Notes under the pieces: generated by a model
The model's input: the letters and a program-made list of their open reading frames with translations, nothing else
Database searches by the model: none
What the model was told of the DNA's origin: nothing
From: Escherichia phage OLB35
Sequence record: MH992122.1
Reading direction: 5' to 3' (one strand)
Length of the DNA: 64,000 nt
In this document: positions 9,552 to 10,404 of the stretch, piece by piece
Position numbering within the stretch: the first letter of the stretch is position 1
Layout: each line of letters starts with the position of its first letter
Made by a program: the position numbers and the translations under genes

Positions 9552-9580
9552 AAAAAAGCCCCAACCTTTCGGAAGGGGCT
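9552..9580 (-). terminator. rho-independent terminator (minus strand)
   Basis: stem AGCCCC/GGGGCT followed by a T-run on the minus strand; 3' of the tRNA / small-RNA region. Confidence 0.5.
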
Positions 9581-9631
9581 AAGCCTTGCGGTAACCTTGT
9601 CGGGGTTCCACCTGCTAAGGCAAGTGTTTGT

Positions 9632-9723
9632 ACGAAACGCCGGGATTCGAACCCGGTTATTAAGCAGTTGACGCTACTCAATATTTTTAAAAGGCCATAT
9701 CTCGACCATATCCGAACGTTCCG
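9632..9723 (-). ncRNA. tRNA-like element or small stable RNA (possible T4 RNA C/D analogue)
   Basis: minus strand has a canonical T-arm CCGGG-TTCGAAT-CCCGG followed by a 7-nt strand that pairs with CGGAACG about 85 nt upstream; no standard D or anticodon arm could be folded by hand. Confidence 0.25.
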
Positions 9724-9886
9724 TCAAAAACGCTACTCGGCTTACGGCAAAGATATTTCCTCGAATCGATAATTCGGTGCGCCGTTTCTGCTGTGATAGT
9801 AAAGAATCAGAACACAGTAAAACTGTGGGAGAAACTATACTCCAGGGAACATCAGTCCGACGACTTACCGGTAGCGACCCGGTTTC

Positions 9887-10231
9887 TCATTTTGGCATAT
9901 CATCAATTTGCTCTCGACGCCGACGCCATAGATTAATCGCTTCATTAACACATTCGGCGTTTGGTATATGACGGCAATAATATAATGATTCGCGTTTCTG
10001 GAACCGATGTTGCAACGGGATTTCGTTTAAAAGATCTTTACGATCAAAGTATTCAAAACTAGTTAACCCTGAACGGTTTTTAATGAACTTCCAATGTCCG
10101 AATTCGTTTTGAACATAGATGTAATCGGCATGCTGATACAGCGAATTAATCAACCGGTCGGAAATAACTGTATCCTGTTCGTTAAAATAAAACGTTAAAT
10201 CATGAACTACCAGATAAATATTACCTTTCAT
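9887..10231 (-). CDS. hypothetical protein
   Basis: about 114 aa from ATG at 10231 with SD GAGGAAA; the track start at 10279 would overlap tRNA-Arg. Confidence 0.45.
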   Translation of the reverse strand: MKGNIYLVVHDLTFYFNEQDTVISDRLINSLYQHADYIYVQNEFGHWKFIKNRSGLTSFEYFDRKDLLNEIPLQHRFQKRESLYYCRHIPNAECVNEAINLWRRRREQIDDMPK

Positions 10232-10249
10232 ATTTTCCTCACTTGAAGT

Positions 10250-10326
10250 TGGTCGAGACAGAAGGATTCTAACCTTCAACCTACGGATTAGAAGTCCGTT
10301 GCTCTATACAATTGAGCTATGCCTCG
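10250..10326 (-). tRNA. tRNA-Arg (anticodon TCT), CCA encoded
   Basis: hand-folded cloverleaf: acceptor CGAGGCA/TGTCTCG, D stem GCTC/GAGC, anticodon stem ACGGA/TCCGT with loop CTTCTAA, T stem GAAGG/CCTTC; 77 nt. Confidence 0.8.
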
Positions 10327-10329
10327 AAT

Positions 10330-10404
10330 TGGTGACCCTGGCTGGTTTCGATCCAGCTACCTATCAGTTATGAGCTGACAGCTCTCCCATTGAGCTACAG
10401 GGCC
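10330..10404 (-). tRNA. tRNA with anticodon CAT (Met-type; likely the AUA-reading tRNA-Ile as in T4)
   Basis: hand-folded cloverleaf: acceptor GGCCCTG/CAGGGTC, D stem GCTC/GAGC, anticodon loop CTCATAA, T stem GCTGG/CCAGC; 75 nt, CCA encoded. Confidence 0.75.

Follow-up and report, generated by a model that had tools for sequence, protein, structure and literature searches.

Putative orthologues of the T4 small stable RNAs C and D in the tRNA region of Escherichia phage OLB35, with a comparative fold for RNA C

RNA C and RNA D downstream of the tRNA genes

Escherichia phage OLB35 (sequence record MH992122.1) was analysed over a stretch of 64,000 nucleotides, here called the window. An earlier inspection of its letters (the sequence-only reading) had drawn attention to positions 9,552 to 10,404, where two tRNA genes are accompanied on the minus strand by a tRNA-like element that was taken to be either a small stable RNA or a degenerate tRNA. 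Megablast of positions 9400-10500 matched 851 phage records, and the best matches (94-96% identity) identify the stretch as Mosigvirus, an RB69-like T-even phage. Along the minus strand of 9552-10404 the order is tRNA(CAU), tRNA-Arg(UCU), a small open reading frame (ORF), RNA D, RNA C, a trailer hairpin and a terminator. This arrangement very probably represents the distal end of a T-even phage tRNA transcription unit that includes orthologues of the T4 genes rnaC and rnaD. The candidate is a rediscovery of annotated T4 genes together with a genus-typical tRNA set and was in this respect already known. Added here are corrected boundaries, the rnaD orthologue, the rejection of a previously drawn acceptor helix and a covariation-supported fold of RNA C with a kissing contact. 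The two small RNA genes are placed as follows:

9631..9769, minus strand: rnaC orthologue (species 1 RNA), 139 nt, by coordinate transfer from T4
9770..9775, minus strand: 6-nt spacer GAAUUA between rnaD and rnaC, by coordinate transfer from T4
9776..9890, minus strand: rnaD orthologue (species 2 RNA), 115 nt, by alignment to T4 and coordinate transfer

Sequence comparison indicates that the tRNA-like candidate is the 3' two-thirds of an orthologue of T4 rnaC. The minus strand of 9540-9900 aligns end to end with T4 rnaD, rnaC and trailer, and rnaC itself is homologous to its T4 counterpart over the full length (137/139 identical). In the T4 record, rnaC (139 nt) and rnaD (119 nt) directly follow tRNA-Arg, and the record of phage ATK47 carries the feature "rnaC; small stable RNA; species 1 RNA" at the site homologous to ~9630-9768. 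The suggestion of a small stable RNA like T4 RNA C or D is thus borne out by the T4 identity and the ATK47 annotation, while the span proposed for it (9632-9723) was too short, as rnaC extends over 9631-9769 by T4 coordinates. As in T4, rnaC is placed after rnaD and before a conserved trailer hairpin and terminator, and by coordinate transfer the rnaC copies of T4 and OLB35 have the same length. The OLB35 copy differs from T4 rnaC by two substitutions, one of which turns a U-A into a U.G pair in hairpin 2, and in OLB35 an inserted ORF parts rnaD and rnaC from tRNA-Arg. Northern blots of T4 describe RNA C and RNA D as late RNAs that both accumulate as stable species, of ~140 nt and ~120 nt respectively (PMC9697503), and their roles are given as unknown in the literature (PMC3014915).

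The perfect T arm described earlier, CCGGG-TTCGAAT-CCCGG, is present at 9640-9656 of the minus strand. The failure to fold a D or anticodon arm by hand agrees with the searches: ARAGORN makes no tRNA call at 9631-9769, and at E<=10 the same interval has no tRNA hit apart from the Rfam tRNA-Sec model, which scores 16.6 bits against a gathering threshold of 47 (E=3.6). Neither at the gathering threshold nor at E<=10 does Rfam offer a family for rnaC or rnaD. The transfer-messenger RNA (tmRNA) search of ARAGORN was likewise negative, and there was no Rfam tmRNA match.

A covariation-supported fold of RNA C

The fold was derived from 33 distinct rnaC homologues out of approximately eleven genera, collected from phage records, viral contigs and metagenomes. 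These represent Tequatro-, Mosig-, Gapriver-, Winkler-, Moon-, Karam-, Teguna-, Kanagawa-, Marfa- and Gelderlandvirus as well as the unclassified phage Ursula. In the resulting model, RNA C is a 139-nt tRNA-shaped four-way junction composed of a 7-bp acceptor stem, an arm of ~70 nt, a hairpin and a T arm. Its elements, all assigned by covariation, are listed from the 5' to the 3' end of the RNA:

9762..9768, minus strand: 5' strand of the acceptor stem, CGAUUCG, paired with 9633-9639
9692..9761, minus strand: long arm of ~70 nt in the position of the tRNA D arm, with the apical loop UUGACG at 9722-9727
9660..9681, minus strand: hairpin 2, with an 8-bp stem and the 6-nt loop CGUCAA at 9668-9673
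9640..9656, minus strand: T arm CCGGG-UUCGAAU-CCCGG
9633..9639, minus strand: 3' strand of the acceptor stem, CGUUUCG

A 137-nt RNA C stretch has a minimum free energy (MFE) of -50.1 kcal/mol (z = -4.4), a stability that none of 200 shuffled sequences attained, and the MFE fold of the window's rnaC taken alone closes the 5' end onto the 3' end rather than forming the acceptor-like helix of the sequence-only reading. Across the 33 homologues, 92% of cells are paired and 17 of the 33 core pairs have changed on both sides (92-94% of cells and 17-26 pairs with compensatory change across the rnaC tests). The observed covariation was reached in none of 500 shuffles, and slid controls are 32-49% paired. 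In the acceptor stem, 20 sequences have G-C and 13 have A-U at pair 5:136, and Tegunavirus has U-A and C-G in place of the two central U.U mismatches. The ends of the 139-nt RNA annotated in T4 coincide with the ends of this terminal helix. The long arm comprises 20 pairs, of which 8-9 show compensatory change, with 92-96% of cells paired; all four pairs of its apical stem covary, as do all eight pairs of the hairpin 2 stem. Two pairs of the T-arm stem covary as well, one alternating between G-C and U-A (13 vs 17 sequences) and one between C-G and U-A.

Furthermore, the apical loop UUGACG (9722-9727) is exactly complementary to the loop CGUCAA (9668-9673) of hairpin 2, which suggests a kissing contact of 6 bp. 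All six pairs are intact in 33/33 sequences. Where they vary, they do so on both sides, with A-U replaced by G-C in four sequences and C-G by U-A in two; these correspond to two independent compensatory loop changes, UUGAUG/CAUCAA in Tegunavirus and UUGGCG/CGCCAA in the Marfavirus type. In the Kanagawa-, Marfa- and Gelderland-type phages the sequence of the long arm differs, and the kissing loop is retained. The loop in the anticodon position would be occupied by this contact and hence could not decode.

RNA C shares with canonical tRNA (RF00005) a 7-bp acceptor formed from the two ends and stacked on a 5-bp T stem, the T loop UUCGAAU, a discriminator followed by an NCA/CCA tail, a U at position -1 and the placement inside tRNA arrays. 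It differs in its length of 139 nt, in the ~70-nt arm that replaces the D arm, in an anticodon-position hairpin whose stem has 8 bp and whose 6-nt loop pairs with the long arm, in the two U.U mismatches of the acceptor and in the lack of any Rfam or ARAGORN call. The tRNA-like domain of tmRNA and the bacterial Y-RNA-like (YrlA) tRNA mimics draw on an acceptor/T-arm module for contact with the tRNA machinery and do not decode. The likeness of rnaC to these RNAs would be one of architecture, as rnaC has no tag reading frame, no Ro-binding stem and no tmRNA or YrlA match.

Several points weigh against this fold and its application to OLB35. The acceptor stem is only 73% paired, with the two U.U mismatches present in 31/33 sequences, and few independent events lie behind its covariation (one A-U/G-C clade split and Tegunavirus). 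Three base pairs at the foot of the long arm are invariant, so that covariation cannot assess them. The kissing contact is known from covariation only, and for OLB35 the ends and the stability of RNA C and RNA D are transferred from T4. Moreover, an alternative 8-bp helix is thermodynamically good in T4-type sequences and could form transiently.

This alternative is the acceptor-like helix of the sequence-only reading. The underlying complementarity between ACGGAACG (9724-9717) and CGTTTCGT (9640-9633) does exist in the sequence, but it is not the conserved pairing. Among the 33 homologues it has 0 compensatory pairs, no pair having changed on both sides, and every column shuffle equalled or exceeded the observed value; a G.U pair becomes A.C in 18/33 sequences, from most of the other genera, and three of the eight pairs are broken in Tegunavirus. 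The helix was rejected on these grounds. The earlier fold might nevertheless be right, at least as an alternative conformer, in which case the RNA would span ~93 nt (9632-9724) and be closed by the acceptor helix ACGGAACG/CGUUUCGU, while RNase P would remove the first 45 nt of rnaC as a leader. The full 8 bp in T4-type sequences, the pairing of 86-90% overall and the use of this helix by the Rfam tRNA-Sec model (16.6 bits) and by ARAGORN in phage PG7 speak for such a conformer. We consider it quite improbable, given the missing two-sided changes, the A.C and Tegunavirus breaks and its incompatibility with both the apical stem (4/4 pairs covarying) and the kissing contact (paired in 33/33 sequences). 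Besides, the RNA annotated in T4 is 139 nt long and not ~93 nt as this helix would predict.

RNA C as a module and its possible role

The surroundings of rnaC in other phages resemble those of a tRNA gene. Ordinary tRNA genes flank rnaC in Winkler-, Moon-, Karam- and Gelderlandvirus and in phage Ursula, with gaps of a few bases between the upstream CCA and the start of rnaC and between its end and the following tRNA. The base preceding its acceptor stem is U or A. In the place of the N-CCA of a tRNA, the acceptor stem is followed by U-ACA in the window (9632-9629) and in T4-type sequences generally, by U-UCA in Tegunavirus and by an encoded, real-tRNA-like U-CCA in the Marfavirus type. The U-CCA copies are L043, L045, L047 and L094, the type being exemplified by Klebsiella phage Marfa. 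In five T4-like viral contigs (L102, L105, L106, L108 and L109) rnaD is joined straight to the trailer hairpin and rnaC is exactly absent, a presence/absence polymorphism among natural phages. The converse also occurs, rnaC being present with no detectable rnaD adjoining it in Moon-, Karam-, Winkler-, Teguna- and Kanagawa-type phages. As rnaC can be precisely absent, it resembles a tRNA gene in behaving as a self-contained unit. Judged from these sequences, placement in tRNA arrays, tails and precise absence are in keeping with an element that originated from a tRNA gene and is processed in the same manner. RNA C would then be cut from its precursor by RNase P at U(-1)/C(+1) and trimmed at its 3' side to the end of the helix, and the same RNase P cut together with trimming would set the 3' end of RNA D.

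A tRNA pseudogene, i.e., the decaying remnant of a tRNA that T4 still has, without a function of its own, would account for the perfect T arm and tRNA-like 3' strand in the absence of D and anticodon arms. The smaller number of tRNAs than in T4 and the ARAGORN call of 'tRNA-Met' on the homologous 95 nt of PG7 would also suit this explanation. However, T4 has rnaC beside all eight of its tRNAs and accumulates the product as a stable RNA (PMC9697503), and rnaC is 137/139 identical between T4 and OLB35 while the neighbouring tRNA-Arg is only 47/77 identical. Since compensatory changes have maintained the fold in approximately eleven genera, RNA C is not a decaying tRNA, and the degenerate-tRNA option of the sequence-only reading is very improbable. 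Compensatory changes in the RNA helices of both rnaC and rnaD argue against small proteins being encoded here. Such proteins appear in many GenBank records as 'hypothetical protein' on the strength of plus-strand ORFs of 64-74 aa. One- and two-base insertions and deletions among the homologues, the replacement of the rnaD centre by unrelated sequence of different length and the RNA products seen in T4 (PMC9697503) make a coding function scarcely credible. The main rival to a tRNA-mimic function is a role in cis, in stabilisation or processing of the operon transcript: RNA C, RNA D and the trailer would be structured 3' blocks shielding the precursor from exonucleases and steering its processing, and would not act in trans. 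All three immediately precede the terminator at the 3' end of the unit, the ends of the RNAs depend on neighbouring tRNA processing sites, and natural phages without rnaC retain rnaD and trailer. On the other hand, rnaC sits in the middle of the array and not at its 3' end in Moon-, Karam- and Winkler-type phages, a protective block would have no need to conserve the six-base loop-loop contact, the T arm and the junction sequences from genus to genus, and in T4 separate stable species accumulate (PMC9697503). A cis-acting role appears rather unlikely.

We tentatively favour a role of RNA C as a tRNA mimic that does not decode and that interacts with a host or phage factor able to bind tRNA. 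Candidate factors would be those of tRNA processing, modification or repair and of tRNA-targeting defence, and RNA C would serve as an accessory in host interaction and not as an essential gene. Counting against this role, natural phages without rnaC show that the gene can be dispensed with, an observation equally compatible with a cis-acting or neutral role. It is more doubtful whether RNA C constitutes a distinct, widespread class of phage tRNA mimics, a tRNA-sized module present among the tRNA genes of eleven or more Straboviridae genera. In such a class, the anticodon-equivalent loop would be permanently locked by the six-base kissing contact and the acceptor would keep its two U.U mismatches. 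A literature search on phage tRNA-mimic decoys returned nothing directly relevant. When a T4-like phage was evolved on a semi-permissive host, each of the three lines acquired the same single-nucleotide polymorphism (SNP) in the rnaD region, together with a large gain in virulence (PMC12685909). This convergent SNP points toward a decoy or adaptor role.

RNA C and RNA D have been known for decades as abundant RNAs of T4, and the comparative fold makes the question of their function testable. This applies in particular to the acceptor stem formed from the two ends, the covarying loop-loop contact and the modular presence or absence among phages. If these RNAs are indeed decoys or adaptors, e.g., for tRNA-targeting defence nucleases or processing enzymes, the fold would provide precise mutants for a function that has been an orphan for 50 years.

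RNA D, the tRNA genes and flanking features

The rnaD orthologue at 9776-9890 adjoins rnaC and went unmentioned in the sequence-only reading. It is identical to T4 rnaD at 99/115 positions and to a T2-type contig at 111/115; the lower identity to T4 is due to a central domain of another type. With T4 it has homologous 5' and 3' modules and a common helix framework, the 5' module consisting of the hairpin ACCGG-GUCGCUA-CCGGU and GUCGUCGG and the 3' module of CACAGCAGAAACGGCGCACC. It differs from T4 in the central domain, which is a T2-type hairpin set and not of the T4/RB69 type, and in its 3' end, which reads CACCG instead of CACCA. Moreover, the 5' end overlaps the stop codon of the inserted ORF, whereas that of T4 follows tRNA-Arg by one base, so that the 5' end of RNA D would be made differently in the two phages.

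Alignment of 25 distinct rnaD copies yielded an RNAalifold consensus of 23 pairs, nine of them with compensatory change. Covariation is found in four helices, namely the 5' hairpin, the pairing of GUCGUCG with CGGCGCAC, a short UGUU/AGCA helix and the stem that closes the central domain. A hand-drawn helix GAUG/CAUC was dropped, as RNAalifold found the covarying UGUU/AGCA instead. Folded alone, the window's rnaD is no better than shuffled sequences (z = -0.7), and the structural support for RNA D is thus comparative only.

The central domain occurs in at least three unrelated versions among T4-like phages. In the window, the minus strand of 9795-9845 holds a T2-type centre with the hairpins GGAG...CUCC and CACAG-UUUUA-CUGUG on a Mosigvirus backbone, unlike the T4-like centre of RB69 and ATK47. 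Together with the number of unrelated versions, this suggests a mosaic swap inside a small RNA gene. An rnaD-like RNA with a T2-type central hairpin is also found in Phapecoctavirus 536P1 (L009 600-712), which belongs to an unrelated myovirus genus in another subfamily (Stephanstirmvirinae); the RNA is flanked by a tRNA-like element and tRNA-Thr. Two of its helices carry compensatory changes, one G-C pair being flipped to C-G and one C-G pair replaced by A-U. The tRNA-like element directly upstream (L009 519-597) is 79 nt long with the acceptor GGACUUG/CGAGUCC and a T-arm-like hairpin, and it receives neither an ARAGORN call nor an Rfam call at E<=1.

The remaining features of the unit, from its upstream to its downstream side, are:

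10330..10404, minus strand: tRNA with CAT anticodon and encoded CCA (ARAGORN; Rfam 59.4 bits)
10250..10326, minus strand: tRNA-Arg (UCU, reads AGA) with encoded CCA (ARAGORN; Rfam 71.1 bits)
9887..10237, minus strand: 116-aa ORF of the RB69ORF150c family between tRNA-Arg and rnaD (ORF list; phrog_3355, E=2e-50)
9609..9626, minus strand: trailer hairpin CACUUGC-CUUA-GCAGGUG (fold)
9552..9580, minus strand: intrinsic terminator of the tRNA/rnaD/rnaC unit (fold; homologous site in PhAPEC2)

In the window ARAGORN calls two tRNAs and no more, both of them on the minus strand; with 71.1 bits (Arg) and 59.4 bits (CAT tRNA) in the Rfam tRNA model (RF00005), they are canonical tRNAs. Beyond these two, no Rfam family reaches its gathering threshold in the window, so that the two CCA-encoded genes folded by hand stand as described and no further tRNA is added. 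The complement had been called reduced in comparison with the eight tRNAs of T4. Eight are indeed present in the homologous T4 region, but two is normal for Mosigvirus: RB69 has the same two genes and most close relatives annotate Arg and Met, making the small complement the norm of the genus. The tRNA-Arg is identical to that of RB69 in 77/77 bases apart from a 2-nt indel. Codons AGA and AUA occur at 8.8 and 14.0 per 1000 in 62 long ORFs of the window, and both are rare codons in E. coli. Two tRNAs that decode AGA and probably AUA would represent an ordinary case of phage tRNAs covering codons rare in the host.

As judged from its sequence, the CAT tRNA is probably a lysidine-modified tRNA-Ile that reads AUA rather than a tRNA-Met, a label that in the ARAGORN output rests on the anticodon alone. 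C4-G69 and C5-G68 are determinants of the lysidine synthetase TilS in E. coli. Both are present in the acceptor stem GGCCCUG/CAGGGUC, which is that of T4 tRNA-Ile, also a CAT tRNA; with the CAU anticodon and the similarity to known members, they support a tRNA-Ile (CAU). In common with T4 tRNA-Ile and E. coli tRNA-Ile2 it has the acceptor GGCCC...GGG(U/C)C, the anticodon loop CUCAUAA and the D stem, and its sole matches in 5,426 E. coli genomes are a CAT tRNA named tRNA-Ile by PGAP/RefSeq. Compared with the RB69/T4 allele, anticodon stem and T arm are replaced (54/75 identical), and the T loop AUCGAAA is unusual in having A at position 54. The Mosigvirus locus thus has two alleles, one in the window and ATK47 and a T4-tRNA-Ile-like one in RB69 and KAW3E185. 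They have the acceptor stem in common and are replaced from the D loop through the T arm (54-57/75 identical).

The TGA stop of the 116-aa ORF (9887-9889) overlaps the first bases of rnaD. The ORF is annotated in RB69, ATK47 and PhAPEC2; Pfam and PHROGs provide no function for it or its neighbours, and the ORF itself has no Pfam match. The trailer hairpin is conserved from T4 to OLB35 and is also kept in phages without rnaC. The terminator proposed at 9552-9580 is supported by a G+C-rich hairpin, GCCCCUUCC-GAAA-GGUUGGGGC, followed by U6, and the homologous site is an ARNold-annotated terminator in PhAPEC2. A simple terminator scan did not flag 9552-9580, owing to a 2x2 U.U internal loop in the stem.

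The OLB35 genome should carry rnaC and rnaD features, which many GenBank records lack, among them the RB69 reference record with neither of the two. In many public genomes 'hypothetical protein' coding sequences are placed over rnaC and rnaD instead. The corresponding plus-strand ORFs of the window (64-74 aa) lie at 9548-9772 and 9777-9971, and mis-annotated public loci also include L116 915-1064 and L057 8491-8585. The record of phage PG7, like ARAGORN, calls a 'tRNA-Met' on the 3' part of rnaC.

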